Source: Paecilomyces variotii (taxonomy: Eukaryota). Taken from it: 64,000 bases of DNA. The position numbers were made by a program, and so were the translations under genes. The stretch's first letter is position 1. Each line of letters starts with the position of its first letter. The DNA lies in assembly GCA_004022145.1 (NCBI GenBank), contig RCNU01000001.1; one strand, written 5' to 3'. Under the pieces are notes generated by a model that saw nothing but the letters and a program-made list of their open reading frames with translations, did no database searches and was not told where the DNA came from. Positions 14,501 to 57,438 of this stretch are shown piece by piece.

Positions 14501-14812
14501 GTGTCTCTCCGTCCACCTTCTCCAGCTGCGGACCTCCCTATCCAGATTCTTTCTTCCGTTTTCCGGTAAGCATCCCCGACTCCCTTGGGATCGCAAGCAT
14601 TGAGATCTTCAGCTCGTCCCCCGAAAAGCCCTAGACTCTGAGCAGCGGTCGAAAGATTCTTGCTTCGTTGTCTATAATTCCCATCCCGAAGAGAGAAACT
14701 GTCGTGCAGCTTTTTAGGGTGCTCAGTTTCCACGCTGCTGCTGCTGCTGATGTTATCCTGTTTCGTGTTGGCTAACTGTCAATTCCATCTACTAGATCCC
14801 CCAGCAGTCATC

Positions 14813-15414
14813 ATGTCCAAGGAGCTCACCACCGCGGAGGTTGCCTCCCACAACACCAAGAAGGATCTATACATGATCATTCACGACAAGGTTTACGATG
14901 TCACCTCTTTCGTCGATGAGCACCCGTATGTGGCCGCCTTTTCGCGACTCCCCCTAAAAAGTTACTAGTTAGATCGCAGCAATTGCTTAGCTAACACGTG
15001 AGTCGGTCATAACTAGTGGTGGTGAGGAGGTCCTTCTCGATGTCGGTGGTCAGGATGGTACGGAAGCTTTCGAGGACGTCGGACACAGTGATGAGGCCCG
15101 TGAGATCCTGGCCGGTCTGGAGGTCGGAACGCTGAAGAGACTGGTATGTTGTGCTTCCCATGGTCTTAAAACACCTGCCCGAAGAAACTTGCGATCCATC
15201 TTGTCCGCTCCACTGCCTCGGCCTGTAGACTGACAAAACACTTTTCGATTAGCCCGGTGAAGCTGGCCCCAAGACTGGCAATCCCTCTTCCGTCAGCGTC
15301 CCTAAGAAAGACAGCACCGGCCTCGGCATTGGTCTCTACGCCGTTCTGCTCATCGGTGGTGCCGCTGCCTACTTCGCCTACCAGTACATCCAGGCCAATG
15401 CTGAGAAGCAGTGA
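14813..15414 (+). CDS. cyb5: Cytochrome b5, tail-anchored, 3 exons
   Basis: Spliced product [69 protein letters not shown]... carries the HPGG and GHS heme-ligand motifs and a C-terminal TM helix ([19 protein letters not shown]). Confidence 0.96.
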
Positions 15415-16343: not shown

Positions 16344-19300
16344 TCATCTCGAGGTGCCATTCAAACCTGCCTGGACGGCCTCCAGAATCAGGTCCTTGGC
16401 CTGCTCCACGCTCTCTTTAGATCCCTTGATCTCAATTGCTTCTCCCTTTGCCTGGTCCTTGGGCACATTAATGCGGCAGCCGGTCTTCTTCCTGATGGAG
16501 TTGATCTGGCTACCTCCTTGTCCAACAACGAAGCGGTATGTCTTGGGGTCAGGCAAGATGAGGTAGCCAGTAGCCGACTGTTGGGATGCACTTGCGATGG
16601 CCTTTTCCAAGGCAGCCTTTGCCTTGGAAACATTTTCAGACGAGCCGCTGAGAACCCATGGAATCGTGGACTGCTGCGAAGGATCAGCCGCAACGGAACT
16701 GTTGTCAACGACCTTCCAGGAGTGAGCGTCTGCAGCCGCGCCTGGCTCATCAGTGATCAAAGGAAGCGAAGCTGAATCATTCGTGCCATTGCGAGAATCC
16801 ACGCTGGGCTTTGGCGGGATCTGATGACCGGCATGATCGACCGTCACGTGGTAATCATTGCGAAGGCGACGGAAGAATGAGCCATTCTCCGAAATAGCGT
16901 GGTGAAGATGCTTCGGTACTTCAACAGTTTCGCCTTGCTGTTCCTTGAGCAAGGTTAGGATATGCTCCTTGGCTCCCTCGACGGCGTTGCTGGGGCCCTT
17001 AATTCTCACGTCAGAACGGCCCGATCCCTGCTTAGGGACGTCCAGAGTGATGTTGAACTTGGACTCCAAGTCTCTTCTGGTGTCACCGCCACGGCCTATG
17101 AGCAGGCGATGCTGTGACTGAGGCACATCAATTGTAGCGGTCACTTGGTCCTCTCGCTCCTTCACGAAGTCCTGAATAGCAGCAACGATCTTGTCAACGA
17201 CGGCCCCGTTGCCTTCAAGCTTAATCGTACTATCATTGCTTTCTGGACGGGGGAACTTGACAATACGAGCGGCGCTACCGTCGTTGGGACCACCAGCATC
17301 AACAACAATTTTGCGGATATTCGCACCTTTGGGTATGTTAGATAGGCATTAAACGGAGAATACGGAGACAAGACTTACCACCTGCGCCGATCAGAGCCTT
17401 GTGATACTTCTTGTCAACATCAATCGTCTTGGTGACAATAGCATCGAACTCCTTGGAACGCTGCTGAAGGATCTTCTTTGCCTCCTCAACCTGCTTCTTG
17501 GTGCCCTTGATTTTGATTTCAACGCGACCCGACGCATCCGGAGTGTCGTTAGCGCTGGGAACATCAATCTGAGCACCAGTGTCGGCCCTCAGCTTGTCCA
17601 TCTCACGACCACGCTGGCCGATGAGAGACGGGACTTGGGCCTGAGCAACAGACACAGAAGCAGAGTGAGAGTGGTCAATAACCCATTGCAGCAAGCTAAG
17701 AATCTCATCTCTTGCGGCATCAGCGCCTTTACGGGGACCCTTCACAATCACTTCGTCAGGTGCCTGCTGCGGTCGTTGAGGCCGTCCTCCGCCTACTTCG
17801 CTTGCAGTGTCCGCAACAGACTGGTCGTCATTGACCTGCGCTGACACGGCAGCACGAGGGAACTGTACGCGAACATTGTACCGGTCCTGAAGGCGGTTAA
17901 CCTGGCTACCCTTTTGACCAATCAGGTCACGATGGTACTGCGGCGGAACCTTGAGGACGTGAGTTGTCTCGTCTTCAAGCTTCCTTCCCAGAGCAATAAT
18001 CCGGCTCTTCGCAGCATCAGCCTTGGCCTTTGGTCCTTTGACCTCAACTTTTCCGTTCTCGACCTTGATATCCACGTCGAACTCATCACGAAGCTTATTG
18101 ATGTTCTCACCCCTCTTCCCAATGAGGAAGTTGGCGAATTTCTGAGGGAAATCAAAGCTAGTGGTATATCCCCTCTCTAGATCATCCTTTTCCTGCTCAA
18201 CGACAAATGTATCGATCTTCGAGGCCAGATCTTCGACAGAATTGGAGCGACCACGGAGAGAAACTTCACACTGAGGAGCAGCTTTCTGAGCTCCGTTGCG
18301 TTCACTTGGCTCGCCAATGATGACACGGACGGGGATGTGATCTTCACCCTTAGCCTGCTGTTCACGGGCGACAAACCTCCGAAGCTTTTCAGCGTATCTG
18401 AAAATATCTGTTAATATTGATTGAACAATTTCATCAAGGGAAGGCTTGCATACTTCGCAGGTACATTGACCGATTTGGCGACGACGTTCTGCTGGTCTCC
18501 CAGGATACTCAGAATGTGTTCCTGGGCTTCCCGCAGGCTTCTTTCAAAAGCAGCGACTTCCTCAGCTGATGGTCGTTGTCTTGGCGGCTGGTACTCTGGG
18601 CTTGTTGCGGAGGGGCCCTCATAGACCAAGAAGACATTAGGGCTATCAACATCGTCTGGGACGATCAGATGGACACCGAAGTCATTCTTCAGTTGAGAGG
18701 AACTCCGGGAACGGAGATAAGGGTGGAAGTAAGGGTCTACGGAGACAGGGCGGATTCTCGATGGGGGATGGGCTTGAACCAAGCCCATGATATCAGAACG
18801 AGCCCGGATAGTATTCTTTCCATCCCTGGAATACACCTCCCATGTCACTGGCCCATCTGTGGTCGGTGGCAGCACAATACGGGCATCGTACAGCGATTCC
18901 AGATGTCTAATGATCTGGCGCTGCTGCAGATACGACGTAAGAGCGCGCGCATGAGCGTGGGGGCCCACAGGTGCGTTAGGATGTTGCCGGGACAGGTCGA
19001 TGCTTGCCATCTGCATGCTGGTGGCGAGATCCATAGCACGGTTGACACCAACATCGATGTGCTCAGGTGGTCCGGTGATAGTTAGGAACTCGCTCTCGTC
19101 AGACTCTGGAGGCAAGATGATAGCGCAACCGGTTTCCGCAAGGAAACGGTGTAGTGCATCAGCTTCGTCACCCAAGATGAACTGATGTTGGCCACGGTTG
19201 ATAGCCAATTGTCTTAGTGTGAGTTGACGCTGCAGCTCAGCAGCACGTCGCTCGATTTCAGCTCGCGCTTCCTGGGCCGCAGAACGTTCACCCGAAATAA

Positions 19301-20516
19301 GGATGTGCGTACTGGGGTCAGGGACGAAGTTGATCTGACCAGGGACAGCTTCCTGGGGTGGCGGTTGTGTCGTCCATGTATCATAGCGGGGAACCCTTAT
19401 CTGAGCCTTTGTGCGTTCCTCAATCTCATTGAGATTGGTGTTGTGAGGACCTGCGAGGAATGGGAAGAACTCTGGGGGAATGGTCTTCAGGCGCAAGCTG
19501 ATATTGGATGCCCGTTCCTTGACAATAGCTTCTATTTCTCGTCGAGCCATTTCCGCTGCAACAGCATCTCCCTCAATCAGGACGTCAATCGTGACGTCGT
19601 CGTCGTCCTCTTCTCCAGCCGGCGATTCCTCAGCTCGGGGTACCTGCACTCGAGCACCAGTCCGCTGTTGGATATCTTGGACAACTGCACCCTGGCGACC
19701 GATAATGTGGGGCCGGGCTGAAGCTGGGATAGGCACTCGGACAGATTGCTGTTAAGAGTCAAAAACCGTTTCAGAATAGGTGAACTACGGGTTGGCGTAC
19801 CTTAGATCCAACCTGCTGTGCGACGTCCTTCAGGGCCTGTCTAACCGCATCCACTGATCCCTTGCCCTCGAAGATTATGGAACCACCTGGCCCACTACGC
19901 ATATCAACAGTAGCCTTCGAGCGCTTGCTGATGTCTCTAAGAAGGTCGCGAAGTGGCTTCTTGAGCTGGCCACGGGGAAGCATCTGCGAAGGCGCAAGGC
20001 GGAGCTGCTCCACATGCTTCCCAGGAAGTGTCATGATCTTTGGTGCATCACTGACACCGAAACCCTGCGTACCTGTAGCAGCTGTGGACGCGAATTCCGT
20101 CAATTGAGGATCCGAAACTGATATACGGGAGAAGACGTACCGGAAGCCTGTGAGCCATTGGCCAGGCCGTTTGCTACTGCAGCAGCTGAAGATTTCTTAG
20201 CACCCCAAGTCGTCGGAACAGCAGCAGCTCGAGGCTTGGGACCGCCTCCCAGAGCAGGAAACAATTCCTCGGACTTCACATCGAAAGCTGGTGCTTTCTT
20301 CCGTGCAGCAGCAGTTGTTGCGCTACCGGAAGCGGAATCCGGCTTCACTTCCGATGCAGCGGGAGGAGGATGCTGGATTTCATCCTCGTCCGGTACATCC
20401 TCCACTGTCACCTTGTGAGCTTCATCGCGTGCGTGCTGCTCCTCCAACAGAGCAGCCGGTGATTTTGTGGCAGCCGATCCGCCGTTGACGATCAGACCAG
20501 GCGCTTCAGCTGACAT
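16344..20516 (-). CDS. scp160: Multi-KH-domain RNA-binding protein Scp160/vigilin
   Basis: Repeated KH GxxG motifs (IIGRQG, LIGQKG, LIGQRG, LIGAGG, LIGRGG, VVGQGG) across several exons; N-terminal SEELFPALG motif. Confidence 0.93.
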
Positions 20517-21510
20517 TGTAAATAACTTCCCGAAGTTATTGCAGAGAACCGGGGTGATAGGATTATATCAAGAGGTGGGAATGAGCGGAGAGAAATTTAA
20601 AGTCCTAGACAGCGAGAATTGATTAGTATGCAAAGCGCAAGAGCTATCATTGAGTCAGACTAATCGAGTCACACCTGTAACCTGCAATTCTGAAAGAGAA
20701 TGTACAATGCAGAAGACGCCAATGCTCTAGCTGGTGTAAGAAAACCAACAGAATCGCCTACACTAAGGCGGTGGACTGATCTAGAAAGGCTGGGGGTCAA
20801 ATGGTACGGATATCTATCTGGTAAGTGCAACAACGAATTGCATCACACCGGTCGAGCAGCAGACAGGATTAGAAGGGCGGAGAAGAGAGAATAAGAGAGG
20901 TGAAGAGGCGGAGGAGGAGGAGAGATGATGAGAAGGGGACGTGAAGAAAAAGCGTGGTCGATGAGCGTTTCGAGGACGGAGCGGAAAGGACAAGTTCGAG
21001 GTGTCGGAGTTGGGACTTTGGGGCAACGCACCGGACTGTCTCTCTCTGTTTCGTCCGCCGCCGCCTAGCGCACTCTGGGGCCGGAGGAAGCACGCGAGAC
21101 GCCGATGTTGTGCCGTCACCAACAACGGTGATGGTCCCATATAGTTAGTATTTACTCATTGCTGTGGTTCTTCTTCTCTTCACGATATTGCTGTGGTCGC
21201 TCTGCAAGGGCTGTCTCTGGAGCATCGAGAAGCTGCGTGGAGATAGCCAATGCGGGTACTTCCTCGTCTCTGTTAACTAGAACTGAAAGGCAATGACATA
21301 TCTGCTTTTGCTTTGTGTCCTTACTTAGTCCCCCTAGTTCCTTGCGAAGTACTAATCCAATTCACATTATGTGATGCCTTCATTAGGAATCGTACTTGTG
21401 TGGCCGATTCATAAATCTTACGGAGTCTTAATATACCAGGATTACACGTCTCTCTCCGGATGGCGTCAATGTTTATTGGTCTTCTATTACTTACTACAGG
21501 CTCAAACATC

Positions 21511-24126
21511 TCATTTTATTTTCAACCTGTGGTTCAAAAGCCTCAACACCCAGTTGCAATGCCCCGTTTCATCTTCCAACGCTGCGATAGAGTCTGCTAT
21601 CCTCTGTGACAAAGACGCTAGTGTCTGCTCAGTGTACTTCATACTCCCAGCTTTCTGCAGATGATCGAGCACAAACTGCTTCAGAGGCACATGTAGACCC
21701 CCTGACGTCCGTGAGACCTGGAGGATTCCCTGCAGCTGGAAGTCTCCAGGAGGAGACGTCAAGGCGTGAATCAACGGGAAAGAAAACTTCCCTCCATCGA
21801 GATCCTCGCAAAAACCCTTTTTCTCAGCATACTGTTTTATCGAGTGATTGGTCAGAGTCTAAGTATCTTGGCAATCGCTTTATGGACCCGTCTTACCTCT
21901 TCTGTTAGATTTTTGTAATCGTCGCGGATTTGGAAAAACTGACCCAGCAGAGTAGCTAATGAATCCAAGGAGCTATACATTCCATCAGAGCAGTCAGATT
22001 ATGAGGAATATTTGGGCAGTTAAACGAAGACCGATAGCGTACCAACTATGCCCTGTTTTCGCCTTCTGCATCATCATCCGTGTTATCAGTCGAAGAAGAC
22101 CACCGGTTTCTGTATCATGAATGATCAGCACGTTCTATCTTTGGCCACATACAGAGAAAGAGAAGTGTGATTTACTCTGACTGATCATTGCAAGATATTC
22201 ATCCTGCGAGGGGCATTTCCCATGCCTGGTCCAATACAGATCGAAACTTTGTCCGATGAACAAGTTCTGGGTCTCTTCCATGAATATATCCCAACATCGT
22301 TGGTTGTCGAGCTGTCTCACTTGGTCGGCAGCCTGTAACAAAAGGAAGTTTGCAGAATTGATAGTTTGTCCGGCTCCAAATATTACATGAGTTGCTGGTT
22401 GACCGCGGCGGAGAGGGGATGCATCTTCGATGTCATCTAGCCTATACCGGCACAGTCAGTGACATCTGACCAGGTCCTAAGGGTTACGGCGTGTACAGCA
22501 TACATTAATGACGCATTGTGCATAGTCTGCGTAATGGACTTGAATTGGTTGATAAGATGGGGTGGTAAAGTGAACCAGACATTTAGTCCGTCAATAAATG
22601 CCTCCCGGATTCCTTTGGAAGGAAGAGAGCTAATGTAATCTGCTGGTCCAAGAAGATGCTGTGTGATAGAGATGTCAATAATATAATCTCATACACAGTG
22701 AAGATATGGCCACTCTTACCTCACTGCCTAGTTTTGTCTGCTCCAAGAGCCGTCGATCTTCATCTTTTGACGGACTGGACGATATCGAAGATCGCGACGA
22801 AGAGTCAGACCAACTAAAAGACTCATTTGATATACTGTTTTCGGAGATACTCGAGTGTCTGGTTATGTTCCCTGCAGAGGTTTCTTGCCCCGTATTGTCA
22901 TCTTTCTGAATCGTATTCAAGCCTTTTTCTTTATTTCTTTGCAACATGAGGCTCGCCTCATCGCAGAGTCCAGGGTGGTAGCGGGGACATCGAATGCTCC
23001 AGGCAACATTTCCTGGGATTTGATATTCCAAGGCCCTCAAGTAGGTGGCCAGCTTGATATTTCCTTTTCCTTCTCCTGCCAAGAATGCGTCTTTTCGTTT
23101 CCTAAATTCCTCTTCGTACCCATTGGTTACTTCTCTGACACGGCTTTTCGCTTCAGCTGCATCGATCTGGTACCATTTCATAAAGAGCCAAACCAGGTTC
23201 GTCATGGTGCTCTCGCCGCAACGCCCTGACCGGAAATCCTCCCATTCAACATCAAATGAGAAGTAATCATTTGCCAACCCCAAGGCGGCATAGCAAGGTT
23301 TGACTACTGAAGAAAGTCTCTCCTCTTCTTCAGGAGTGAGTCGAATACCCATCCCAAAACGCATCAGCGTATCGACAAACCTGCTTGCTCGTCAGAGAAT
23401 ATTACGAATATATACCATGGTCATGCAACATACGGGGCGCCTGTGTCTATAATCCGATAATCCACGTATTCATCAAGATTCTCAAATATGCGAGATTTGT
23501 CCTGCTTTGCAGTCGTAGAAACCATGGTCTTCCATGAGTCAATCACAACCTCTGCACATGGTGCGTCAATGGAGAGCAGTTGCAAGAGCATTTTGGACTG
23601 TATTTGCTTGGTTCCGATAACTGATTTTACCGTCCGATATTCTGTATCATCGAGAGAAATATCGTCGCCATGAGGGTTCCACTACCTACAATTAGCTTCC
23701 CTCGATTAAAAATTGCTCCAGATGGAAGAACATACAGTGGACTTGGCTGCTGATTCGACAACATTGTCATAAAGAAAGGCGTCTATTCTCATTATCATAA
23801 GTCAGCAAAAGTACATCATTCGTTTCGCCTCGACTTGCTTGCATACATTCGAAAATATATGAAATAACCCCCAGTCTCTCTGGTTTACAAAGTGGGAGAA
23901 CCACTGTTCCAAAATGTCCTTCCCATGGGCTGTTGCAGCCCCAGCGTTCAATTGGACCTATGTATTTCAACCAGTCTTCGCGACATTGTAGAGAACCCTC
24001 GATTGCCTTGTCTTCGAATTTATGTCGTCGCAGGGCATATCCATCACAAAATCCTTCGATATCAGATGATTCTCGAGGCACAGTGTAGGACCTTTCATCA
24101 TCCAATAAGAGATTCAGATGCGCCAT
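21511..24126 (-). CDS. Chimeric (bifunctional) class I terpene cyclase + trans-prenyltransferase, variediene-synthase-like; 9 exons, about 710 aa
   Basis: Hand-spliced through 8 GT-AG introns with no stop or frameshift. Cyclase domain: YDNVVE (about 23754-23771), RIIDTG, NSE motif NDYFSFDVE (about 23245-23271), WSIRCPRY. Ser-rich linker. Prenyltransferase domain: SLPSKGIR, LDDIED..RRG (about 22423-22437), GQSFDLYW, KTGGL, QIRDDYKN (about 21909-21923). It closely resembles, from memory, variediene synthase EvVS. Confidence 0.93.
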
Positions 24127-24917
24127 TTCTCCGGTCTAACAATGCAAACAGTATGCTCACAAAGCGCCAGAGATCATGAACAAACTACCTGGCAGAATTT
24201 TGTGGGCGATCGAGTTCATCAAATTGTCAATTTGCATGTCTCATATTTCTATTTCTACGCAAATTAAGTTACGACCAGTTTCTTCCTCAGCGGTGACGTG
24301 ATCTAAACCAGTTTAGCTTTTAACATAGTAGACTGATCATATACAAAGTCAATCTTACTGTGAACACATGTTCACGCAAGATCGCATTCAGAATTAAGGA
24401 CGCAGATATCATCGTGCAGAACTTGGAATTCGGTCGATTTCTTATCCAATATTGGGCTGCGATGATCCACACGGCTCCACAGCGTAGATTGTTGATGCCA
24501 GCAGAAATTCAATCTGAGATTCTTGCCAGCTTTTACGCTGCATCGTAACCTGATTTTTGATGTCATCACCCTGAAGAAGCACCATACTGTACCTTTGGGT
24601 CTGCAAGGGATCGTGATCATGTCTGTTCAGCCGATCTTACAGATCATACATTATACTTTTGCTACCAATAACAGATTAGCGATTAAAAGAAAGGTAGATA
24701 ACATAATCGAGGTTAACTTTTAATCAAAGTGTGTCTACCATTAAAGTTATCGTCACTGCGCATCATCTGTTCTATATATGGTACATTCCCTACCTGTTGC
24801 TTGTACACTGGATTCTTTACAACCAAATGAAATACTATTTATAGCTCAATTACTGACTTGAGTTCTACCATTCACTCATCAAATAAGACGAACCGCCGCT
24901 GGAGGTAGTATCCTACT

Positions 24918-26145
24918 ATGTCACAGATCACTGCTAGCCAGGCAGCTGCACTGGCTTCCTTCAAGGCATCATGCGCCGAGAGAGGACTTCTTGAGCATGC
25001 TGATGATTTGAAAGATGGAGACTTACCAGATGGGATAACTGACGACAGTACTCTTCTGTGAGTTAACCTTATGAATATAACACTACAATACAGAGGGAGG
25101 GAACTAAATTAGCAGACGTTTCCTGGAAGGCAACCAGATGGACGCTTCAAAAGCTCTCATGCAATTTGAAGAAGCCACACAGTTCCATAAAAAGAATGAA
25201 GCCGTTAAACTGTACGATTTGATAAACGTGACTGATTTTGAGGACACTAGGAAGCTTGTTGGATGGGCCTTTCTTCAATCTCTATTCGATGGAGACTAAC
25301 GAGTACTCTACTCAGTACCCGCACTGGACAGGTCGTCGCGATAACCGAGGCTTGCCCATCATGATGATCGAGATGTCCTCCTTGAATCAAAATTCAGTGA
25401 CCCATTGGCGCCAGACGAAGGACATGCCCAATTGCAGTACCGATACATCCAGAAAGACTATATTGTCTCCCAATATGGCACAGCGAGCTTGTGTACATCA
25501 CGATTATTCGACACGTTTCATATTCCCACTTTGTTCTGCAATGCGAGATCGACCAAACCCGTCTGAGCGAATAAGGAAATCTATCTATATCGTGGATGCA
25601 TCTTCACTCTGTCTGAAACAAGCCTGGGACCTGAGAGAGTTTGCTCAAGACATTAGTTGGATACTGTCGACCTGTTACCCTGAGACCATCGAGCGGATTT
25701 TTGTAAGTACTCTCTTCCTCGGTTCCATTTAATTCAGCGCTCATGTTGATAATGTGATGTGTGAATCTACCAGGTCTGTAGTGCGCCTTTATACTTTTCC
25801 AAGATTTGGGGAGTTCTGAAGAGATTTGTCAACCCAGCAACTGCCGAGAAGATCGTGGTTTTGAGGACAGCTGAAGTTTATCCCACACTGAGCAAGTACA
25901 CCGACCATAAACATATCCCTGTTCAATTCGGTGGAGAGTTTGTCTTTACGAACGGCATGCTTCCCGATCTGGATGATAAGATACGGCAGGAATCACAATG
26001 GGTCGGCCCTTTCAATGGAGATCTTCCTCCTGGTCCCATCAAATGGGTTCGGGAGTCACCAGGACACATGAAGGCAGCAGCCACGGGGACTTCTGATGGG
26101 GTTCGGAGAGCAGAAGATGTTGTTATCATGAAGGACAATGATTGA
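24918..26145 (+). CDS. Sec14/CRAL-TRIO lipid-binding/transfer protein, 4 exons, about 345 aa
   Basis: Spliced product: MSQITASQAAALASFKASCAERGLL...DDSTLL/RFLEGNQMDASKALMQF (CRAL-TRIO N) ...YPHWTGRRDNRGLP...SIYIVDASSLCLKQAWDL...CYPETIERIF/VCSAPLYFSKIWGVLKRFVNPATAEKI...HIPVQFGG. These are the canonical Sec14-fold motifs. The second intron has a weak GTTGGA donor. Confidence 0.88.
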
Positions 26146-27124
26146 AATTGAGGGAATATAGATGGATTCGAAATATAACAATAAGTTCCAGAAAGAGAAC
26201 ACAACAGCACTCGTTTGGCCACTGTTCCGGTAATACTCCCCGCCGATGGTACTTATTTTTCTTCTCCATAACAATAGTCCAGAAGAAGCCACGAACAAGC
26301 TCTATTGGTTTGATTGCGCCTCAACGTTCCGGACCGTGACGGCTATAGCCTTCCCCTCGGCAGGCATTAGTCCTAAGTACCCCGCAAACTCAAGGTTTCC
26401 GCGGGGTGAACTAAGAATTCTTGCTATTCGAATGTTTGTGTACACCAAAGCACTGTGACACATTGGAGAAAAGCCATTCTTCATCAAGATACCGTAACCT
26501 ATCCGAGTACGTGAACTACCAACCCTCGTGGTGTCCACCTCGGCTCGTTTCCGAGCCACTTTCGTGTATATCAGATTCAGGCAAGGGAGCCACTCCCGAA
26601 CGTCGACAATCCACAACCGTCTGTCGGCTGTCTGGACGCCATGTGCTCGAGGGCGGGGATATGTAGGAAAAGCTTGTCCACAGCTTGGCCAGGAGCCTAG
26701 CTTTGTCTTCTGGAAGCCAAAAGAGGCCGATTTGTGTCGGCATTTGCCGAACCTGTGCACACACTAACTAAGTAGGTGCTTATGTCGCACGTAAAAGAAA
26801 AACGCGAAAAAAAACCGAGTGTCGTTCAGACCGTCTGGATTTCTCTGACACTAAACCCCGCGCAGCTTGCCACTATACACGATAGTATGCTAAAAAGCCG
26901 AAATTTAGCTACACGCGATAAGAGATTCCGGAATGGCGACAAGATATGGCCACCGTACCACACTGAAACGCGCTTATTCGTGTCTAGCTTCGGATAACAG
27001 ACTTAAGTGGTATTCTAGAATGTGACCTGTCGCTCTTCTAAGGCACTGAGAATATTCTTCCCCGTGGGGGACGACTTCTTCCTTTTTCTGCTTTCCCTCG
27101 CGCGACTTTCTCTCAGAATCAAAG

Positions 27125-28804
27125 ATGGAGGCAGGATATCTTGAACCAGAGAAGGTCACGGAGACAGCTCTGAGGGAGGTCCCCGTCGAGGAGAGGAACA
27201 TCGTCAAGCCCTCTGGTTTTCTTGCTCGTTTTCGCTACTATGAGGAGCTCTTGGATCGCAAAATGGGGGTTGAGTCGCATAGTCTCGACCGAGTGCATCC
27301 CGAGGACCGCAAACCGCCAAACCCACTTGTGATGGCCTTCATGTGGGCATCGGCGACGATGAATCTGAGCTGTTTCAGTACCGGATTCCTGGGAAACCAA
27401 TTCGGGCTGTCACTATCACAAACCATCCCGATCACAATCTTTGCAACATTGCTTGGTAGTGCTGTTACGGTTCGGAACATTCCCAGCTGATAAGATGAGA
27501 TGCCTACAGATCTAGATACTGGAGGATCTCTGTTTCTCTTACGTCGCTTACTCTTGTCTGTTAGGGATGGTGTGCAACTATGGGCCCCGGTACTGGCCTT
27601 CGTCAGGTAGCGATATCCAGATACTCCTTTGGTTTCTACCCGTCGTCGATCATTGCCGCCCTGAATGTCGTCGAGCAGCTTGGCTGGTCTTCCGTAAGCT
27701 GTATCACAGGAGGCCTCGCCCTCAGCGCCGTATCTGACGGTCGTGTCTCGATTGCGGTTGGAGTGGTTATCGTTGCAGTGGTCAGTCTGCTATTTAGCTT
27801 CGTTGGGCTGAGGGGCGTCCTTGCGTATGAAAAATATGCCTGGATCCTATTCTTCATCATCTTCATGATTATCTATGGAGAAGCTGCGCACCGCGCAGAC
27901 CTGAAAGCACCACCGAAGGTAACAGGAATGACACAGTCCGGCCAGGCCTTGAGTCTCATCAGCGTGGTCTATGGATCGAGCGCGTCCTGGAGCTCAATTG
28001 TGTCTGATTTCTACGTGCATTACCCGGTCAACACGCCAAAGATCAAGATCTTCCTTTACACGTGTCTGGGCATAACCATTCCGACATGTATCGGAATGCT
28101 GCTGGGTTGTGCCGTCAGCTCAGCCCTCGCAACCAATCCTGAATGGTCTGCTGCATACGATGGTGGAATCGGTGAACTCCTCCAAGTTATCATCTATCCC
28201 AGGGGTTTTGCAAAGCTTCTACTCGTATTACTCGTCCTTTCCGGAAGTAAGTACTTAATGATAAGTATTCTCCACCCAAAATTAGTAACTAACAACTCTC
28301 TCTCTCATAGTTGGCGTGAACTGTATCGCCATATACGCCGGCGCGCTTTCCGCTCAACTATTTGCTAAACCATTCCAGGCAGTTCCCCGAACCATCTGGA
28401 CCATCATTGTCTTTGGATGTATCCTCGTCATCGGCATCGCCGGACGAGATCACCTGCTCGAAGTACTCGAAAACTTTCTCTCCCTCCTAGGCTACTGGAA
28501 TACCTCATTTTTCGTCATCCTCTTCTTAGAACACTACCTCTTCCGCGGAGGCAACCTGGCAAACTACGACCTGGACGCGTGGAATACTCCTTCGAAGCTA
28601 CCCGTCGGAATCGCAGGTCTCACGGCCTTCCTGTGCGGAATGGCGGGTTGGGTTGTCGGGATGGTGGAGACGTATTATGTCGGGGTCATTGCGAAGATGA
28701 TCGGTCATTATGGGGGCGATGTTGCTAATGAGTTGGCTCTGGTGTTTTCGGCTGTTTCGTATGTGCCGTTGAGGAAGTTGGAATTGAAGTATATTGGACG
28801 ATAG
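27125..28804 (+). CDS. NCS1-family purine-cytosine (Fcy-like) permease, 3 exons
   Basis: MWASATMNLSCFSTG, GPGTGLRQVAISRYSFG, SWSSIVSDFYVHYP and LENFLSLLGYW motifs; many hydrophobic segments. Confidence 0.9.
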
Positions 28805-29326
28805 ATGAGATGAGATATATATATCTACCAATATATATCAAAAACGGTAATTTATAGGATTGTAAACTTACGCGCCTTGAAATAGAATCACCGGCTAAAT
28901 AAGCAATAATTACCAGGCAGTCGGGATTGGCGCACTGGCGAGGGGGTCGACATAGAGTGATATATTGCAGTCTGGGTCTCCATAGGGGACATGTGATGCA
29001 TTGAAAAAGTATAGGTTTGCGTCTTGGATTCGAAATCGAAAGCCGGGAATACATATATATTGAAAGCCTCTAGACGAACCAACAATGTTTACGTCTGACT
29101 CGAAGAGGAAATTCTGTATTATGTAAATATATATGCAGTTTACCTGACGTGTCGTCAATGTTCTTATGTGTATTACGATGACTCCGAGCATTCAGTGAGT
29201 TAGCTACAAGTGATCTTTGAGCGACACTGAGTATGAGACTTCACTGCTGGGGTTCTCGAACCAAGAAGAGAGTCTACTCGGAGCATCCCACACATTTTGA
29301 TTATTAAATTTGATTAAATGCTTCAC

Positions 29327-29351
29327 AAAAAAAAAAAAAAAAAAAAAAAAA
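29327..29351. repeat. A25 homopolymer
   Basis: 25 consecutive A residues in intergenic DNA. Confidence 0.9.
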
Positions 29352-31780
29352 GAGAGAAGGGAGGGGGTTAGGATAACCGACCGTTATCCGTCAGGCACAG
29401 GTAAAACCATTTTCCGGAGGGGCAGCCCATCTCAACCATGGATTCTTTCATTAACAGTAGAAGCTCATAGGTTCCAAGCTTGCGGCGTCCTGAAATAGAG
29501 GGGCAGGGATTCGGCATCCTACGGCCCTTTTTTGTGGTCTCTGTCGGGTAGAGGGAAGCCGGATGTGTGATTCGTCGTTCGGGAAGAAGTGCGGTGCAGA
29601 TCGCGCTGGATGCTTTGGGTCTACGGTGCGAACGGGATCGATCCGATAAGAGAAAATGTGGAAATTGATGGATTTGAGTGGGCTGCTGCGAGTTTTTGTG
29701 ATGGACCTATGCTTTTCGAGATGGGGTCTAGCCATGAGTTAATAAGTCAGGCAACGGGGTTGATCGCGGTTCATCCAGAGTTTCAGACGTTCTAGACGAG
29801 GGAGTGGGTTGGGTAGGGTTACTGAAGTTCGCACTGTCCTGCACGATCAGTAGAGGGGAGAGATATCACAATTTGGGAGAAGTTTGGCCTCCAGAAAAGG
29901 GATAAAAACATTGATGAGATTCTCGTACTTTCTCACGGCTGGACGCACTGAGTATTGTACAGTACGAGCGCCTGTGAGATGCCAATCTGATTAAGGGAAC
30001 GGTCGGGGCGAGTCGCCTATCTGGTTTCACAAGGACTGTGCTTAGGAACCGCCGCGGAACCTCGGATAGAGATTCGAAGAAAGACCATGGAAACGGCCAA
30101 GCCACGATGGAGAATGAGCAAAAACGACAGGGAAGTCCTTAGGGTTTGTATATGGACAACATTTGCTGCAGACCGATAAGATTCCAGTGATTGTCTACTT
30201 CGGGGGCATTCGGTGTTTATCTGGCCGTGTGCCATCGCCATAGGGTGCGCGGGATCATTCAACTTTGCGGAATCAAGACGGATGAGAGACATGGCCAGTG
30301 ACAGTCCGCGTCGCATGGTACTTTCGACGATTGGTTCGAGGGGCCCTATTTTCAGCACCTTATTTAGTCTGGACGCAGCATGAAGGACTACTAGTTATGT
30401 ACCGATAGAATGCAAGGGTATATCGCCCGTATCGAGTAATACGGGCGATGGAGGACGGAATGATTTCAGCATTGGGCCGTGGACAGGAGGGGCACCTGCA
30501 CTCGGATACGACCGTGTTCCATCCTGACAGAGCGCAAGGGCCGGTTGGGCCAGAGAGACATCTAGTGCCTGCTGTCGTTGAGTTGGACGGTCTCATGAAC
30601 CACGATGGATCAGGCAGAAGGAAAACACGGAGATGTAGATGGCCCTTTCCGCTGTGTTGGTATAATGAAGAATGTTCAGACGCCCTGTTGATGCGCTGTC
30701 CCTTGACGTGGTAACCCCGCCTCATTTGAGAAGACGGTGACATGTATAGAGTAGTCCTCAGTGGTCAAGTTAGTATATTACCCAAATCAGTAAGTAATGC
30801 ACATAAATGGAATCGAGAGTAAGACAGTAGTATATTGGCACATCATCCAGATTGGATTTGAGCTTCCTCATGCGAACTGTATGGATGTCTTGGGACGACT
30901 CGTTGCTAGCTCGTAGCTTGCTTTTGGCACGACGAACATGCTAAGAAATCAGCATCAGCATCACTGCAGCAGTTGGTCCTGGCAGATGCATCCTAGCCAC
31001 AAACTAGTCTATCTAGATACACCATTGTTGGCGGACAAGAGAAGATCCAGCCTGTCGAACCGGGCTGGTGATGATTATCTATGGTGCCTGCGTTTTGCCC
31101 CGTTGGAGGTGTGCCTCTTGTCTTTGCGCCTGAGAGAGGCTGTGCCGCACTGCGAACTCATCGCCCAGCTAGTTAAGTATGGTATCCCAGAAAGAATAAT
31201 AATCTCTGTGGATGAGACGATCGCTGGCGACTCCACCGCAGCAAAGCGTTGTTGTGAGCTTCTTTCCACTTTGCTTCTTCCCGCTTGCTGGGCCAGACGT
31301 CGCTTGTCTGGCTCTCTCGCTTGTCCCCGTCTCTTGTCGTCTGGACCCAAACCTTCATCGTCCTCTCCGTCGAACTCTCTCCATCTCCATGTCGCGTTAT
31401 TCTTCTTTGTTGTAGCTGTTTGTGCGGGCTCTCAGTGTCTCCTGCTGGAGGCTTTTATCCCAGCAGCATTGTTGATTGCGATTCTTTCTTCATTGCCACT
31501 GACCCTCTGGCGTTATTTGCCTTCCCCGAACGCCTTTCCCCGCCCGGTGACTCCACGTGCTTGTTGCTATCACCGGCCCTGTCACAGCTGCTTTTGCCCG
31601 TCTCCCTTGCGTTGCCATCTGCTTAATCCTCCCCCCGCCAGCTGCTCGTGCTGCTGCATTGTCCATCTAAAATCAGATCAAGAAGGCTGGCAGAGCCAGA
31701 CTGCCGCCTTATAGGTGGCTTTGCACCACCGCCCTATCGCCCAGCCTGTCCTGCAACGGCTGCACCCGTCATCTGCCGCC

Positions 31781-45191: not shown

Positions 45192-45725
45192 GTGCATGAT
45201 TCGACGGTGGAAATCCCGAGGAATATGTCATGATAGGTAATAGGTAATAATGAGAATGCAGTACTGTATAAGCTATGCCGGTTGATTCGCATTCTTGTTT
45301 GCACCAACTGGTTGCAACATGTAATATGGAGTATTGTACCTCGTCTCAGTCATGTGTGGGGGTTGTCGCTAATGAACCCATTCTAGCTTGGTCTAGTGTA
45401 ATGCTTCGATCAAAAAGGGGGTCAGCTTTGATGGGAAATGCGCATTAAATAGGGCCGCTATTCAGAAGACTTCGCAAGTATTAATACTCTAGGCAACTGG
45501 AATATGGGTGCATCTTGTAAGTCACAGAGTTGCACGTTGTTGCCTAACTAACTACCTAAGTATACTACTTGCTACTTAGTGAAACTGTGGGGACAGAACA
45601 TATCTCGAAAACATAGAAATAGGCAACACTGCGTCCTGTCCATTGAATATGCTTTCATTATCTTTGACAAACCAGTCGATCTGAACTTTGAAAGCTGTTT
45701 CACTCAATTGCACAATCCTGCTGAC

Positions 45726-47207
45726 ATGTCGCAGTCATATCAGGATGGGTCTTGCATGCTGTCTCCTATCGACCAGCTGATGCCAAGGATATATACCACC
45801 CTATTTCTTGTCTACGAAACAGACCAGTATGAAAAGGCCGTGAGAAAGCTGAACGAGGGCTTAGCCAAGGCCACCTCCCTCCTTCCATTTCTCAGGGGCT
45901 CTGTTCACAAGTCACCCGACGACTGCAATCCACGCAATCAGTTGTCGCTATCGTGGTCGTCTCAGGATCAGCCGCCAGCTGTGGTCGAGATCCCCGCTCC
46001 AGAGTCTCTACCAAGTTTCGAGACGCTGAAGCTGGGTAAAGCGCCGCTATCCGTCTTCCAAGATGGCCTTAGTCCTGTACCAATGGTCATTGACCACCAG
46101 ACTCCAGGCGCAAGAGCACCGGCCCTCGTGGTCGGAGCTACACGCCTGGAAGGGGGTTTGATACTATGTCTGTGCGCTCACCACGTCGTCCTGGACGGTG
46201 CGGGAATGGGCTTGTTTCTCAAGCTCTGGGGCGACTGCACCAGAGACGAGCCGAACAGTGCTCATTTCGATCCCGGGGAAGTCTATCACAGGGAGCCCTG
46301 GCTACGGGATGCCAGCGGTTATTTCGCCGGGACCAAGCCGAAAGCTACTCTTGAGGAGCTTCTCCTTCGACATCCGGAATACGCTCTTCGGTCTCTGAGC
46401 TCGGCTCCATCGTCAGTGTCGACCAATATCCCTGGCCACCCAGTTAAGTGTGCGGCCAAGATCTTTGCCTTTTCCGGCGCCAAGTTACAGGAGATCAAGC
46501 AGGCCATGAGCAGTTCGATCCCGGCCAAGTTCCTAACGGTCAACAACGTCCTGGGAGCTGCCCTGTGGCTCTGCATCACACGTATTCGGCTCGGACGCAT
46601 GCGCCGCGACGGCCTCGCAACAGTGACAGGTTCTACCACCTCGAAGCTTGGTTTTGCCATTAATGCACGCTCGAGGTTAGGTCCCGCCGCGTCGAACAAG
46701 TCATACGTGGGCAACTTGACTATGCTCAAGGTTGTCGAGTTCACTGCTACTAAGCTGGATAGCATTGCTGGGAATGCCATGGCCAGCCCTGCAGCCGCCG
46801 ACCTATCGCCCATGGTACCGGTTATCAGCGCCATTGCTACAGCGACAGCCGCGGTGACAGCAACACACGTCGGCGAGATTATAGCGTTTGCGGATCACCT
46901 CGCGGACGTTGAGGATGTCGGGCCCGGGTGGAACTCGTCCCATTGTTTGGATCTGACATATACAAGCTGGGCAGACTTAGGGATGTACGATTGCGATTTC
47001 GGGCCCAGTTTAGGGGGTAAGCCGCGGTACGTCAGGATCCCATATATGCCTTATATTGACGGCATGGTACTTGCCTTACCGAGACGCAGGCTGGTGGATC
47101 CTCTAGATGGAAAGGCTATAGAGAGAATCGAGGTTGCTGTCATGCTGAACGAGCGAGATATGCGCGCACTGGAGGAGGACGAGATATTGCGAAGCTGGAG
47201 TGTTTAA
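45726..47207 (+). CDS. BAHD/Tri101-like acyl-CoA-dependent O-acyltransferase, intronless
   Basis: LSPIDQLMPR N-terminus, catalytic HxxxDG (HHVVLDG), C-terminal YDCDFGPSLGGKPRYVR (DFGWG-like). Confidence 0.88.
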   Translation: MSQSYQDGSCMLSPIDQLMPRIYTTLFLVYETDQYEKAVRKLNEGLAKATSLLPFLRGSVHKSPDDCNPRNQLSLSWSSQDQPPAVVEIPAPESLPSFETLKLGKAPLSVFQDGLSPVPMVIDHQTPGARAPALVVGATRLEGGLILCLCAHHVVLDGAGMGLFLKLWGDCTRDEPNSAHFDPGEVYHREPWLRDASGYFAGTKPKATLEELLLRHPEYALRSLSSAPSSVSTNIPGHPVKCAAKIFAFSGAKLQEIKQAMSSSIPAKFLTVNNVLGAALWLCITRIRLGRMRRDGLATVTGSTTSKLGFAINARSRLGPAASNKSYVGNLTMLKVVEFTATKLDSIAGNAMASPAAADLSPMVPVISAIATATAAVTATHVGEIIAFADHLADVEDVGPGWNSSHCLDLTYTSWADLGMYDCDFGPSLGGKPRYVRIPYMPYIDGMVLALPRRRLVDPLDGKAIERIEVAVMLNERDMRALEEDEILRSWSV

Positions 47208-55148: not shown

Positions 55149-55749
55149 GTTTGGTGATGTCCAAAGGGAACGTAATTCGACGACTGCAATGTTGTTAAGT
55201 CTGCAGGATGTTGGAGTTTCCAGACGCGGGGAACTCTGCGGGCCCGGTGAAGCTAACTTAGTTATATGATTAATTTGGATGAGATGAGTCAGCATACATC
55301 TATTTCATAGAATTCTATAGAAGGAGTTTATGGGTTATATAGTTAGGTATGCTTGGAAAAAGAGATAAACTGTAGGCTAGAATAAGACTGCATGGATGAT
55401 GATGGATTTGCGATCTATGTGTATAGACCCTGCAAAGCAGAAAGTATTTTGCACGCCCTGCGATCTGCCCCTCTTCCCCCGCTCAGAACCCCGAGTTCTC
55501 CTTCGGTCTGGACTAGAAAGACAGTCTGTTCTGCTTCGTTGGCAGCAAGACTGTCTGCGAACTCGTGACTCTGTTTCAACGCTTCTGTGTATGAATTGAA
55601 TCTGTTATATTTATAATACCCCCGATTAACTTAGTGGCTCACTGTATATATATAAATTCCATGTCCCCGAATCCCTTTTTGCTTGATGCTATTTAGCCAG
55701 AAACTACATATTAATATTAACTGAATTCTTTCATCTTATAAGCCAACCC

Positions 55750-57438
55750 ATGAAACGGGCCTGTGATTCCTGCATTTCTCGCAAAGTCCGGTGCGACGGT
55801 GCGCAACCGTGTCGCTCATGCTTATCCTCAAGCAAGAAAATCGACTGTACTTATTTGAAACCGGCACGAAAGCGAGGTCCGAAGTCGAGGCGTATTTCTC
55901 GAGTTCTAGCCACCGCTGTTAATGCGAGATGGGCTACAAACGATGAGTTAGATGTGGTGGATGCGTCGCAGAATGTTGAGTCGGAGTCCGATGCCGTGGG
56001 GGCGAGATTCCTGGACCCGACTACAGTGGTTGACTCTTCGACTCATGGAGAGGTTTCATGGGATATAACTAATCTGCCTGCTAACTCCATGACTGCATGT
56101 GTGTCCTCGATGGCCCTTGAGACAATTATACATGAGTATCGATCGAAATCGTACAGTGTCTGGCCGGTAGTCAAGGCGGAAGGGCTGCTTGAACGAGTTC
56201 AAGATGGCGGAAATGACCCAGGCACATATTGCCTTGCAACGGCGCTCTGTGCTGCGACCATGGCGCAGTTGGATCTTCCGCCCATTGAACAGGACAGCAA
56301 CATAGTAGACGGTGCCGTGCTGGCTGGCGAATGCATCAGGGTTCGAGAGCAGAGCCATTATAGAGAACATCTTGATCTGCGGAGCGTTCTGGCCTCGTTC
56401 TTCCTCCACGTCTATCATGCCAAGGTGAACAAGCGCAACTCTGCGCTGATATTCATCCAAGAGGCGATTTCGTGTGCAAGGCTTCTGAGGCTGGATTGTG
56501 ATGAGATCATGTCGGAAGTTGCTTCAGATGTGGTTGATAATGAAGGTATATTGTTTTTATTACTCTGGGTTTCGGAAAGGTATGTCCTTTTCTGATGATA
56601 TAAACGAAAATAATTCACCTGATATGCCTTCAGAGGATACGCTATGCATCTAGGATTATCGCCTTCTTACGCCGATATTGTAAAGCTGCCAGACGCGAGC
56701 GCCATATCTGACAATGTCCACGTTCAAGGACTGTTGGAACTAGCTAGGCTATTCGTTGCCTTCGCACAATGCATCGCATCTAATAGCTCATACCCCTTCA
56801 CAGACAAACTTGTCACAACAGAAGATTTCCTCCACGGCCTATCCATGCAGCGAGACCAGGCTGCATTCGTTCGGTTGGCAGACTATCATATAACCAAAGA
56901 ATGGATGCGGACCATCATCTGGCAGCAAGCACTCTCCTTAGGACTACTCTCTTCAACTTCTTATAATGCACTAATGACATTTACTTTTCCTTCCTATGTT
57001 GGTCGTGATCTCTTAAGCTCACTGAAGGACTACAATGCCGAGGATCTCCTCCCACTTGGTCGGGACCAGGTACGTTCTCCATCCTTAACTCTTCTTTAGT
57101 TCTGTATAACTGATGACAAACAACAGCTCTTGAAATGCTTCGAAGTGGCAAATTCACTAGCAGACACTTTACTGTGTAATCCAGCTGTATCTGCAGATTC
57201 CCGTTTCCGTCTTGGACCGCTGGAATTCCTGCACGGGTTATATCAGAAATTGTCACCTTTTCTTGAGCAGGATCCGATACTGGATTCGATATTGCGCCAG
57301 AAAACTGCAGAAGCGCTTCTGAGAGCTCCTTCGCGTCTGTGGACGCTTGATATTGAGAGTACGCATGCGGGTGTAATGGACGATAAGGAGGGAAAATCTC
57401 GACCGGTCAATTTGTCATTTAATATGCCTATCCATTGA
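55750..57438 (+). CDS. Zn(II)2Cys6 transcription factor, AmyR/MalR/InuR-like, 3 exons
   Basis: CDSCISRKVRCDGAQPCRSC..IDC followed by RKRGPK; spliced LWVSER/GYAM and GRDQ/LLKCFEVANSLAD segments are typical of sugar-regulator C6 factors. Confidence 0.88.

Follow-up and report, generated by a model that had tools for sequence, protein, structure and literature searches.

What is a gene for a Sec14-type lipid-binding protein doing beside a gene for a diterpene synthase? The question is raised by a stretch of 64,000 nucleotides from the mould Paecilomyces variotii (GenBank assembly GCA_004022145.1, contig RCNU01000001.1), referred to here in its full length as the window, in which a chimeric terpene synthase gene on the minus strand and a Sec14/CRAL-TRIO gene on the plus strand lie head-to-head, their start codons 791 bp apart. 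In many related moulds the orthologues of these two genes are paired as well, which points to, without proving, a joint function. We propose that they form a conserved, co-inherited and divergently transcribed unit, in which an isoprenoid made by the synthase is taken up by the Sec14-fold protein; taking all the evidence below into account, we judge this reading about evenly poised between right and wrong. The pairing has apparently not been described before: a conserved terpene locus of small size in which the synthase is accompanied by a lipid-binding protein and not by a further enzyme. The parts of the locus are as follows.

21511..24126, minus strand: synthase gene, chimeric class I terpene synthase (cyclase plus prenyltransferase), 706 amino acids; exact spliced match to protein P0001
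24126-23847, 23782-23736, 23681-23434, 23380-22720, 22658-22504, 22441-22176, 22109-22043, 21972-21897 and 21831-21511, minus strand: the nine synthase exons
22951..24126, minus strand: cyclase (TC) domain, residues 1-335
23771-23754, minus strand: YDNVVE, first metal motif of the cyclase
23271-23245, minus strand: NDYFSFDVE, second metal motif of the cyclase
22744..22950, minus strand: Ser-rich low-complexity linker, residues 336-404, poorly conserved in the synthase alignment (A3)
21514..22743, minus strand: prenyltransferase (PT) domain, residues 405-706
22437-22423, minus strand: DDIED, prenyltransferase motif
21923-21909, minus strand: DDYKN, prenyltransferase motif
24127..24917, no strand: divergent spacer common to both genes, 791 bp, 40% G+C
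24918..26145, plus strand: Sec14/CRAL-TRIO gene, 346 amino acids; exact spliced match to protein P0168
24918-25057, 25116-25257, 25316-25702 and 25774-26145, plus strand: the four Sec14 exons
25334..25935, plus strand: CRAL_TRIO lipid-binding domain, residues 101-277
25406-25489, plus strand: variable surface insertion, residues 125-152
25954..26142, plus strand: C-terminal extension conserved in the clade, residues 284-346
26023-26046, plus strand: LPPGPIKW motif in the C-terminal extension

Two database proteins named Paecilomyces variotii match the window at 100%, and their exact spliced alignment bears out the placement in the original prediction, made from the DNA sequence alone, of two intact genes that are divergently transcribed. 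The synthase gene runs from a start codon at 24126 to a stop at 21511 and is interrupted by eight GT..AG introns of 53-70 nucleotides. In one public run (X2), a single contig had all eight synthase introns removed and a second contig had all three Sec14 introns removed, with the modelled borders exact and no mismatches in either; because 11 of 11 introns were spliced as modelled, both genes are real, intact and transcribed in this one sample. The cyclase and prenyltransferase domains are covered by one and the same spliced transcript. In other P. variotii assemblies the Sec14 model has one additional intron at its 3' end and another C-terminus (P0113, 364 amino acids; window 26100-26310); the spliced contig from X2 is unbroken from 25774 to 26228, which supports the form of 346 amino acids ending at 26145.

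Two further kinds of transcript-like sequence were considered and set aside. Twelve loose letters preceding position 24918 in the Sec14 contig of X2 could have been taken for an upstream exon of the 5' untranslated region, and are probably an assembly artefact; their sole near-match in the window falls within the gene on the other strand, and 24 of 100 shuffles produced one as good. Contigs from three food-fermentation metatranscriptome runs (X1, X3 and X5) matched 21400-26300 at 95-99% identity, with small insertions and deletions in the spacer and in one intron. These contigs were unspliced through introns or covered only small parts, and were rejected as evidence of expression; being unspliced, they indicate that nucleic acid of a related strain was present in those samples, not that the genes were expressed.

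The spacer had been described as A+T-rich and about 790 bp long. Both statements hold (791 bp; 40% G+C, against 49.8% for the whole window), but other intergenic DNA of the window is equally A+T-rich: the stretch from 28800 to 29400 has a G+C content of 0.39-0.40, and the composition of the spacer is therefore unremarkable. Since the synthase transcript reaches at least 24221, less than 700 bp is left for a common promoter region.

Conservation of the pairing in other species was read from GenBank accessions and locus tags, since their numbers follow the order of the genes. The orthologues of the synthase and of the Sec14 protein were adjacent in 19 of the 21 species with comparable positions, and in 17 of these the accessions or positional tags were consecutive: P. 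variotii (14 assemblies), Aspergillus brasiliensis (4 assemblies, with the characterized variediene synthase AbVS, OJJ72250, beside OJJ72251), A. avenaceus, A. homomorphus, A. oryzae, A. flavus, A. minisclerotigenes, A. parasiticus, A. niger (at least 10 assemblies), A. awamori, A. phoenicis, A. hiratsukae, Penicillium longicatenatum, Penicillium argentinense, A. unguis, A. heterothallicus and A. hancockii. For A. oleicola and A. multicolor the evidence was weaker, consisting of consecutive JGI identifiers on the same contig, and in six more species both genes were found on one contig of 57-473 kb. Because the species are related, the 19 cases of adjacency do not represent 19 independent events. 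Nevertheless, the suggestion that this subclade of Sec14 proteins would be found with variediene-type synthases elsewhere was upheld, and upheld in the AbVS genome itself.

The genes on the outer side of the pair have changed, and the pair has not. At its 3' end the synthase is followed by a KH-domain gene in P. variotii, by a Zn2Cys6 gene in Aspergillus section Flavi, and by a DJ-1/PfpI domain in the gene models of section Nidulantes. Co-location that is conserved across species beyond the surrounding synteny, as looked for in biosynthetic clusters, is what we observed for these two genes.

The neighbours themselves differ in kind between sections. In section Flavi the Zn2Cys6 gene lies after the synthase on the same strand (A. 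flavus KAF7622442/43/44; related proteins P0178 and P0186, A. flavus / A. oryzae), and one A. oryzae model of 1139 amino acids fuses it to the synthase; regulator, synthase and Sec14 gene may form a trio in that section. In section Nidulantes and relatives, 17 synthase models of 734-919 amino acids have ThiJ-like plus DJ-1/PfpI domains after the prenyltransferase domain; the models listed with DJ-1/PfpI are P0027, P0033, P0037, P0043, P0045, P0047, P0048, P0050-P0052, P0055, P0060, P0063, P0065, P0067, P0088, P0092, P0100 and P0107. This arrangement is either a real three-domain fusion or the result of a neighbouring gene having been merged by annotation. Neither the A. flavus Zn2Cys6 protein nor the Nidulantes DJ-1 domain has a homologue adjoining the pair in the window; in a homology search with both, the matches were limited to 39 zinc-finger residues at 55.7 kb and to the end of the prenyltransferase domain itself. 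The term "stand-alone", which the original prediction had applied to the module, is thus apt for P. variotii and not for section Flavi, where a Zn2Cys6 gene follows the synthase, or for section Nidulantes, where DJ-1/PfpI is fused or adjoining.

A second body of evidence came from metagenomes. Contigs were scanned with the Sec14 alignment, which yielded 80 loci, and these were then searched with the synthase by tblastn. A synthase match was found on one of the 80, L039, a contig of 2.5 kb in which a synthase start (with YDNIVE) and a Sec14 start lie head-to-head across approximately 1 kb. The synthase portion is closest to enzymes of Pleosporales (63-69% identity over approximately 100 residues), and the Sec14 portion is closest to a protein of Lophiotrema nucula, also of the Pleosporales (41%). 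Proteins of this lineage share only about 35-46% identity with their P. variotii counterparts, and the head-to-head order is found there as well.

When 35 named Sec14 proteins and the metagenome pieces (105 rows in total) were placed in one tree with FastTree, every synthase-linked member fell inside a single clade of 41 rows, which comprises all members from Eurotiales, Lophiotrema, L039 and three short contigs. A second group, of 62 metagenome loci, is set apart behind a long (0.51), fully supported branch. At least 1.6 kb of sequence upstream of the Sec14 match was available for 45 loci, 43 of which lie outside the first clade (among them L026 and L051, two long branches that were not placed), and none of the 43 had a synthase upstream. 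Linkage to a synthase thus characterizes one Sec14 clade, not the Sec14-like genes of fungi at large; the notion that the wider Sec14 family is terpene-linked was rejected, L039 being the sole synthase match in the 80 metagenome loci. Another metagenome locus, L038, from the Penicillium subclade of the first clade, carries a GFA-domain gene and a gene for an aromatic prenyltransferase of DMATS type, another prenyl-handling enzyme, upstream of its Sec14 gene (L038:1223-4086).

The two genes also appear to share a history. The same topology was obtained for the synthase and for Sec14: in each tree a Penicillium clade splits off first, followed in order by section Flavi with A. avenaceus and A. 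hancockii, by section Nigri and by a Nidulantes/Usti group; the comparison of phylogenies that the original prediction had called for shows them to be congruent. In both trees, P. variotii and a Talaromyces species stand beside section Fumigati, inside Aspergillus, whereas taxonomy places Paecilomyces in the Thermoascaceae and Talaromyces in the Trichocomaceae, both separate from the Aspergillaceae, to which Aspergillus and Penicillium belong. Monophyly of the Aspergillaceae was rejected by the approximately unbiased (AU) test for Sec14 (p = 3.8e-5) and for the synthase (p = 6.5e-50, or 1.4e-8 without one long branch); the test was run after the trees had been seen, on a group defined by taxonomy. 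Two histories would give this result: transfer of the pair as a unit, or sorting of both genes in like manner from an old duplication. In either case a common placement that contradicts taxonomy implies that the two genes travelled together. The base composition of the pair is also distinctive: its third-position G+C values (0.475 and 0.476) are the lowest two of 20 coding stretches, the other 18 ranging from 0.477 to 0.692, and the two-gene module has 44.7% G+C against 50.1% for the rest of the window. Low G+C and tree placement are compatible with acquisition of the pair as a unit.

What the synthase makes can be narrowed down from its relatives. In Pfam searches the protein scored 69 bits against Terpene_syn_C_2 (cut-off 23.7) and 175 bits against polyprenyl_synt (cut-off 27), so that it combines both domains of the fungal chimeric class I terpene synthases (TC-PT enzymes, also abbreviated PTTS or BFTS). 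The motifs DDIED and DDYKN, with Asp466, Asp467, Asp470, Asp592 and Asp593 (D466, D467, D470, D592, D593), are invariant in the synthase alignment A3, and NDYFSFDVE is likewise intact. The presence of YDNVVE instead of DDxxD/E raised the possibility of a defective cyclase, which was rejected, as xDNxxE is shared by 50 of the 85 relatives in the alignment, the active AbVS being one of them; 26 further relatives are gapped at this first motif because their gene models miss an exon of 47 nucleotides. The P. variotii enzyme is 63% identical to AbVS (P0005 = OJJ72250, A. brasiliensis) over 99% of its length and, in the gene tree, falls inside an Aspergillus-centred clade containing AbVS, and it can be classed on these grounds as an orthologue of the characterized variediene synthases AbVS and EvVS. 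The P. nalgiovense synthase (P0038, P0040) has YGNVLE, with Gly for the first metal-binding Asp, and lies on a separate contig from Sec14; it may be a decaying copy.

Published work on these relatives bears on the product. Enzymes 40-64% identical to EvVS produced variediene in yeast (PMC8307374), and Au13192, the nine-exon orthologue from A. ustus, yields variediene in vitro (PMC4895135). Given these results and the orthology with AbVS, the product of the P. variotii synthase is likely to be variediene or a close C20 hydrocarbon, a prediction drawn from the 63% identity. According to the same report on A. ustus, no variediene-like compound was seen in cultures of the fungus (PMC4895135). Geranylgeranyl diphosphate (GGPP) is not channelled within EvVS (PMC12130500), and a paper of 2022 described the gene cluster and final products of AbVS and EvVS as undiscovered (PMC9440366).

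The partner protein was examined in the same manner. It scored 70.8 bits against CRAL_TRIO in Pfam (cut-off 22.6), and an AlphaFold2 model was obtained with a predicted local distance difference test score (pLDDT) of 90.6 and a predicted TM-score (pTM) of 0.90. The best structural matches of this model were yeast Sec14p and Sfh1 (Foldseek, Sec14p: E 7e-15, probability 1.00), with TM-scores of 0.69-0.76 by target, followed by a plant Sec14 domain, human supernatant protein factor (SPF), alpha-tocopherol transfer protein, CRALBP, and yeast Sfh2 with squalene. Sec14p and Sfh1 were also the best matches by sequence, with E values of 6e-18 for the single protein and 1.6e-31 for the clade profile. 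A CRAL_TRIO domain within a predicted Sec14 fold is the picture given by both profile and model. Beyond this fold the protein has a C-terminal extension of approximately 60 residues that is absent from yeast Sec14p, the TM-score being 0.62-0.64 when normalized by the query against 0.72-0.76 by the target; three beta strands are modelled at 312-318, 321-326 and 337-343, the LPPGPIKW core is invariant, and G284, P287, L289, P308, G310, P311, K313, G328 and R335 are invariant in the Sec14 alignment (A2).

Residues associated with phospholipid binding in yeast are kept in part. The phosphatidylinositol head-group contacts of Sec14p, which we take to be R65, K66, E207, T236 and K239, came out one residue off in the alignment, and for this reason motifs were relied on and not residue numbers. 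The stretch 'LRARKFD' of Sec14p is 'LEGNQMD' in P. variotii, with Asn and Gln in place of the basic pair, and is variable across the clade. At the positions of the Ser/Thr pair, Sfh1 S175 and T177, whose joint mutation gives a phosphatidylcholine-binding mutant (S175I,T177I; title of PDB 6sld), the clade has Ser, Ala or Cys at the first and Tyr at the second, both in P. variotii and in the clade consensus; gaps lie nearby, and the register is likely. The Ser/Thr pair of the classical carriers of phosphatidylinositol and phosphatidylcholine (PI/PC transfer proteins) thus appears to be lacking, and the protein, although predicted to have the Sec14 fold, would not be a classical PI/PC carrier. 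T246, K249 and E217 (in the 'pvTvsK' and 'ypE' stretches), at places where yeast Sec14 contacts phosphatidylinositol, are invariant in the clade. Prediction of a three-chain complex of cyclase domain, prenyltransferase domain and Sec14 protein, in which alignments were not used, scored 0.00 and is no evidence either way.

We reasoned that the two proteins could act in sequence. The C-terminal domain of the synthase would condense dimethylallyl diphosphate (DMAPP) and isopentenyl diphosphate (IPP) to GGPP, and the N-terminal domain would cyclize GGPP to variediene or a close C20 hydrocarbon. The closed hydrophobic pocket of the Sec14 protein would then take up an isoprenoid from the synthase, the insoluble hydrocarbon being the first choice of ligand and released GGPP the second, and the protein would deliver it from the enzyme in the cytosol to its destination, whether a membrane, a lipid droplet or a tailoring enzyme further off; genes for tailoring may be located elsewhere. 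Uptake of an isoprenoid is reasonable because the synthase is a large soluble assembly, its product is insoluble, and CRAL-TRIO pockets are able to hold squalene, oxidosqualene, tocopherol and retinal. The ligand of the Sec14 protein, and any effect that it might have on yield, location or tolerance, are offered as a proposal.

A number of observations weigh against a partnership of this kind. The two genes are unlinked in two species: in P. atrosanguineum the tags N7443_004015 and N7443_006087 differ by 2072 and belong to two contigs (4.99 and 2.41 Mb), and in P. nalgiovense the genes are PENNAL_c0031G03069 and PENNAL_c0003G09066. At least nine species of Penicillium (P. chrysogenum, P. rubens, P. 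mononematosum, P. desertorum, P. egyptiacum, P. expansum, P. coprophilum, P. fimorum and P. robsamsonii) keep a Sec14 protein of the linked clade with all 34 invariant residues, and no variediene-clade synthase from any of them was among the 112 matches of one search or the 120 listed of 213 in another, from which it follows that the Sec14 protein is of some use independently of the synthase. Talaromyces stipitatus, A. wentii and A. thermomutatus are likewise in the Sec14 list and not in the synthase list, an uncertain observation given clustering at 90% identity and the limits of a word search. The word "dedicated", by which the original prediction had qualified the carrier, is weakened by the two unlinked species and by the Penicillium species with no synthase among the listed matches. 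The metagenome locus L038 has no synthase in 4.4 kb upstream of its Sec14 gene, and no fused synthase-Sec14 protein was found in two protein searches, the sole fusions encountered being with DJ-1/PfpI and, in one model, with Zn2Cys6. Most of the adjacency was found within one order, in related species; a bidirectional promoter alone can keep a pair of genes together without a biochemical link; the transcript evidence comes from the single run X2, whose contig depths cannot rank genes; and the invariance of T246, K249 and E217 makes a phospholipid ligand possible.

Much of this would be expected if the linkage involved no biochemical coupling, that is, if the two genes were chance ancestral neighbours, held together by descent and a short divergent promoter, and the Sec14 protein had a phospholipid or trafficking role of its own. 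The intact Sec14 gene in Penicillium species without a listed synthase, the two unlinked species, the concentration of adjacency in one order and the three invariant residues all speak for it, as does the fact that the best matches in both sequence and fold are the phospholipid carriers Sec14p and Sfh1. Such an account is at odds with the persistence of the pair while its outer neighbours changed in at least three lineages, with the repetition of the head-to-head order on a Pleosporales-like contig at approximately 35-46% identity, with a placement common to both trees that contradicts taxonomy, and with a sister Sec14 clade in which no linked synthase was seen (0 of 43 loci with sufficient flank). 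We regard it as a serious possibility, but lean against it. Far less probable is the idea that the Sec14 protein is a self-resistance copy, an insensitive spare for a housekeeping Sec14 that is inhibited by the final terpenoid. Spare-target genes are an established pattern in fungal clusters, and small molecules target yeast Sec14p, the matches including its complexes with himbacine, NPPM compounds, an ergoline and a picolinamide. The protein is, however, far from Sec14p (20-22% identity in structural alignments, E 6e-18 by sequence) and, judged against the yeast protein, does not look like the close paralogue expected of a spare target; it persists where no synthase is among the listed matches, and an unoxidised hydrocarbon is unlikely to be a specific inhibitor. 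Self-resistance fits poorly because the clade is old and divergent and has a C-terminal extension, unlike a recent duplicate of a housekeeping Sec14, and we consider this explanation very improbable.

The direction of service could also be reversed, with the synthase working for the Sec14 protein. In the yeast model of heterotypic exchange, a Sec14-type protein needs a second lipid in order to present phosphatidylinositol to its kinase; by analogy, variediene or GGPP would be the second ligand, a private lipid signal tuning phosphoinositide signalling or membrane traffic. Retention of T246, K249 and E217 alongside changed or variable phosphatidylcholine-tied positions and 'LRARKFD' basic pair is in keeping with this idea, which also tolerates the species with Sec14 only, where another ligand could serve, and agrees with the lack of tailoring enzymes nearby in the Pfam scans described below and of variediene-like compounds in the A. 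ustus cultures as far as reported (PMC4895135). It nonetheless borrows from the yeast model, and the loss in P. variotii of basic residues that we take to belong to the phosphatidylinositol site would argue against binding of that lipid there; we think it a decidedly improbable explanation. Somewhat wider is the view of the pair as a natural system of "enzyme plus private lipid-binding protein", either as (a) the first natural minimal terpene cluster consisting of a synthase and a dedicated carrier that unloads its hydrocarbon, or as (b) a case of diterpene or GGPP serving as a second Sec14 ligand and lipid signal. Form (b) would explain why no tailoring genes accompany the EvVS/AbVS clade, why no variediene-like compounds were seen in A. 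ustus culture, and why Sec14 outlives the synthase in some Penicillium. This view in its two forms is speculative and, to our mind, improbable. The reading that we prefer remains that of a unit whose Sec14-fold protein binds the isoprenoid produced by its neighbour.

The wider surroundings of the pair were surveyed by Pfam scans of 63 translations of open reading frames (ORFs) across the window and of 85 further ORFs of at least 75 amino acids (9.5-21.2 kb and 26.3-37.6 kb). No cytochrome P450, dioxygenase, short-chain dehydrogenase/reductase (SDR) or transcription factor was found near the pair in these scans, which a gene of many short exons could escape; within the scanned ORFs of the P. 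variotii window, the earlier statement that no P450, dioxygenase, SDR or regulator adjoins the pair is accordingly correct. The pair is flanked by housekeeping genes, and the other genes recognized were:

14678-15230, plus strand: small two-exon cytochrome b5-like heme/steroid-binding gene, 6 kb past the synthase 3' end and beyond the KH-domain gene
16347-20567, minus strand: KH-domain (vigilin-like) gene, from Pfam
27050-28800, plus strand: purine/cytosine-type permease, from Pfam
Beyond the KH-domain gene and the permease: PAK-type kinase, SH3/GAT protein, PAN2, EF-Tu-like GTPase and Hsp70, from Pfam
45552-47204: gene of the Transferase family (TRI-like acyltransferase)
55687-56592: Zn2Cys6 gene
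57553-58655: zinc alcohol dehydrogenase
60489-61853: MFS sugar transporter

The nearest metabolism-like genes are thus distant (Transferase at 45.5 kb, Zn2Cys6 at 55.7 kb and alcohol dehydrogenase at 57.5 kb). The acyltransferase, Zn2Cys6, alcohol dehydrogenase and MFS genes lie 19-35 kb from the pair, behind housekeeping genes, and nothing links them to it.

The locus is of interest because a well-studied enzyme family, whose cluster is said to be undiscovered, has this conserved partner, and because the matter can be decided by simple experiments. Few chimeric terpene synthases have been studied as closely as the variediene synthases, whose structures, mechanism and product are known, and a conserved non-enzymatic neighbour offers a concrete handle on the cluster question for AbVS and EvVS. 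If the Sec14 protein binds the product or GGPP, it would represent a new kind of accessory gene for genome mining, one not counted as biosynthetic by cluster-finding rules, would provide a natural template for engineered carrier-assisted terpene export (PMC9095633), and would assign a ligand to an uncharacterized fungal Sec14 clade. If it binds neither, the pair would still illustrate cleanly how two genes can remain neighbours and travel jointly in the absence of a common pathway. Full-text searches found no literature linking a Sec14/CRAL-TRIO gene to a chimeric terpene synthase, although a mention in supplements or in the original EvVS paper is possible, and the available portions of the papers on AbVS, EvVS and Au13192 make no mention of a Sec14 neighbour. 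Papers retrieved on terpene synthase clusters and P. variotii did not, by title and abstract, concern this locus, and of those retrieved on Sec14 and fungal terpene clusters one dealt with a squalene cyclase region and the others looked unrelated from title and abstract.

Compared with known systems, the P. variotii synthase has the same cyclase-linker-prenyltransferase layout as AbVS, EvVS and Au13192 and matches all four motifs of that group (YDNVVE, NDYFSFDVE, DDIED and DDYKN); Au13192 likewise has nine exons (PMC4895135), and the AbVS gene, too, adjoins a Sec14 orthologue. Its partner resembles yeast Sec14p and Sfh1 at only 20-22% identity in structural alignments, and differs from them in having a variable insertion (approximately 17-50 residues) and the conserved C-terminal beta extension (approximately 60 residues). 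The same fold is shared by human SPF/SEC14L2, which binds squalene and 2,3-oxidosqualene, by yeast Sfh2/Csr1, which binds squalene, and by alpha-tocopherol transfer protein and CRALBP. To our knowledge, none of SPF, Sfh2, alpha-tocopherol transfer protein and CRALBP is encoded beside the enzyme that makes its ligand. Isoprenoid-holding structures among the matches (4omj, SPF with 2,3-oxidosqualene; 1olm; 7wwd, Sfh2 with squalene; 1r5l; 3hy5) demonstrate that this type of pocket can carry hydrophobic isoprenoids, although as a group these proteins are weaker matches than Sec14p (TM-scores of 0.44-0.54 by query). SPF is also reported to stimulate a step of the sterol pathway (PMC9095633).

Two systems come closer to the pair as a whole. 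DvVS-VndE of Didymosphaeria variabile is likewise a small cluster around a variediene-producing chimeric synthase, but DvVS is only 31-33% identical to EvVS and AbVS, and in the passages available no Sec14 protein is named among orfA-C of its cluster; its partner VndE is a P450 that degrades variediene to norditerpenoids, whereas the partner in P. variotii is predicted to be a non-enzymatic lipid binder (PMC9440366). An engineered CRAL-TRIO terpene carrier exports squalene from cells, the function proposed here for a natural pair; that carrier is a synthetic fusion with a secretion signal and a C30 ligand (PMC9095633), whereas in P. variotii the synthase and the putative carrier are encoded as a natural pair of genes.

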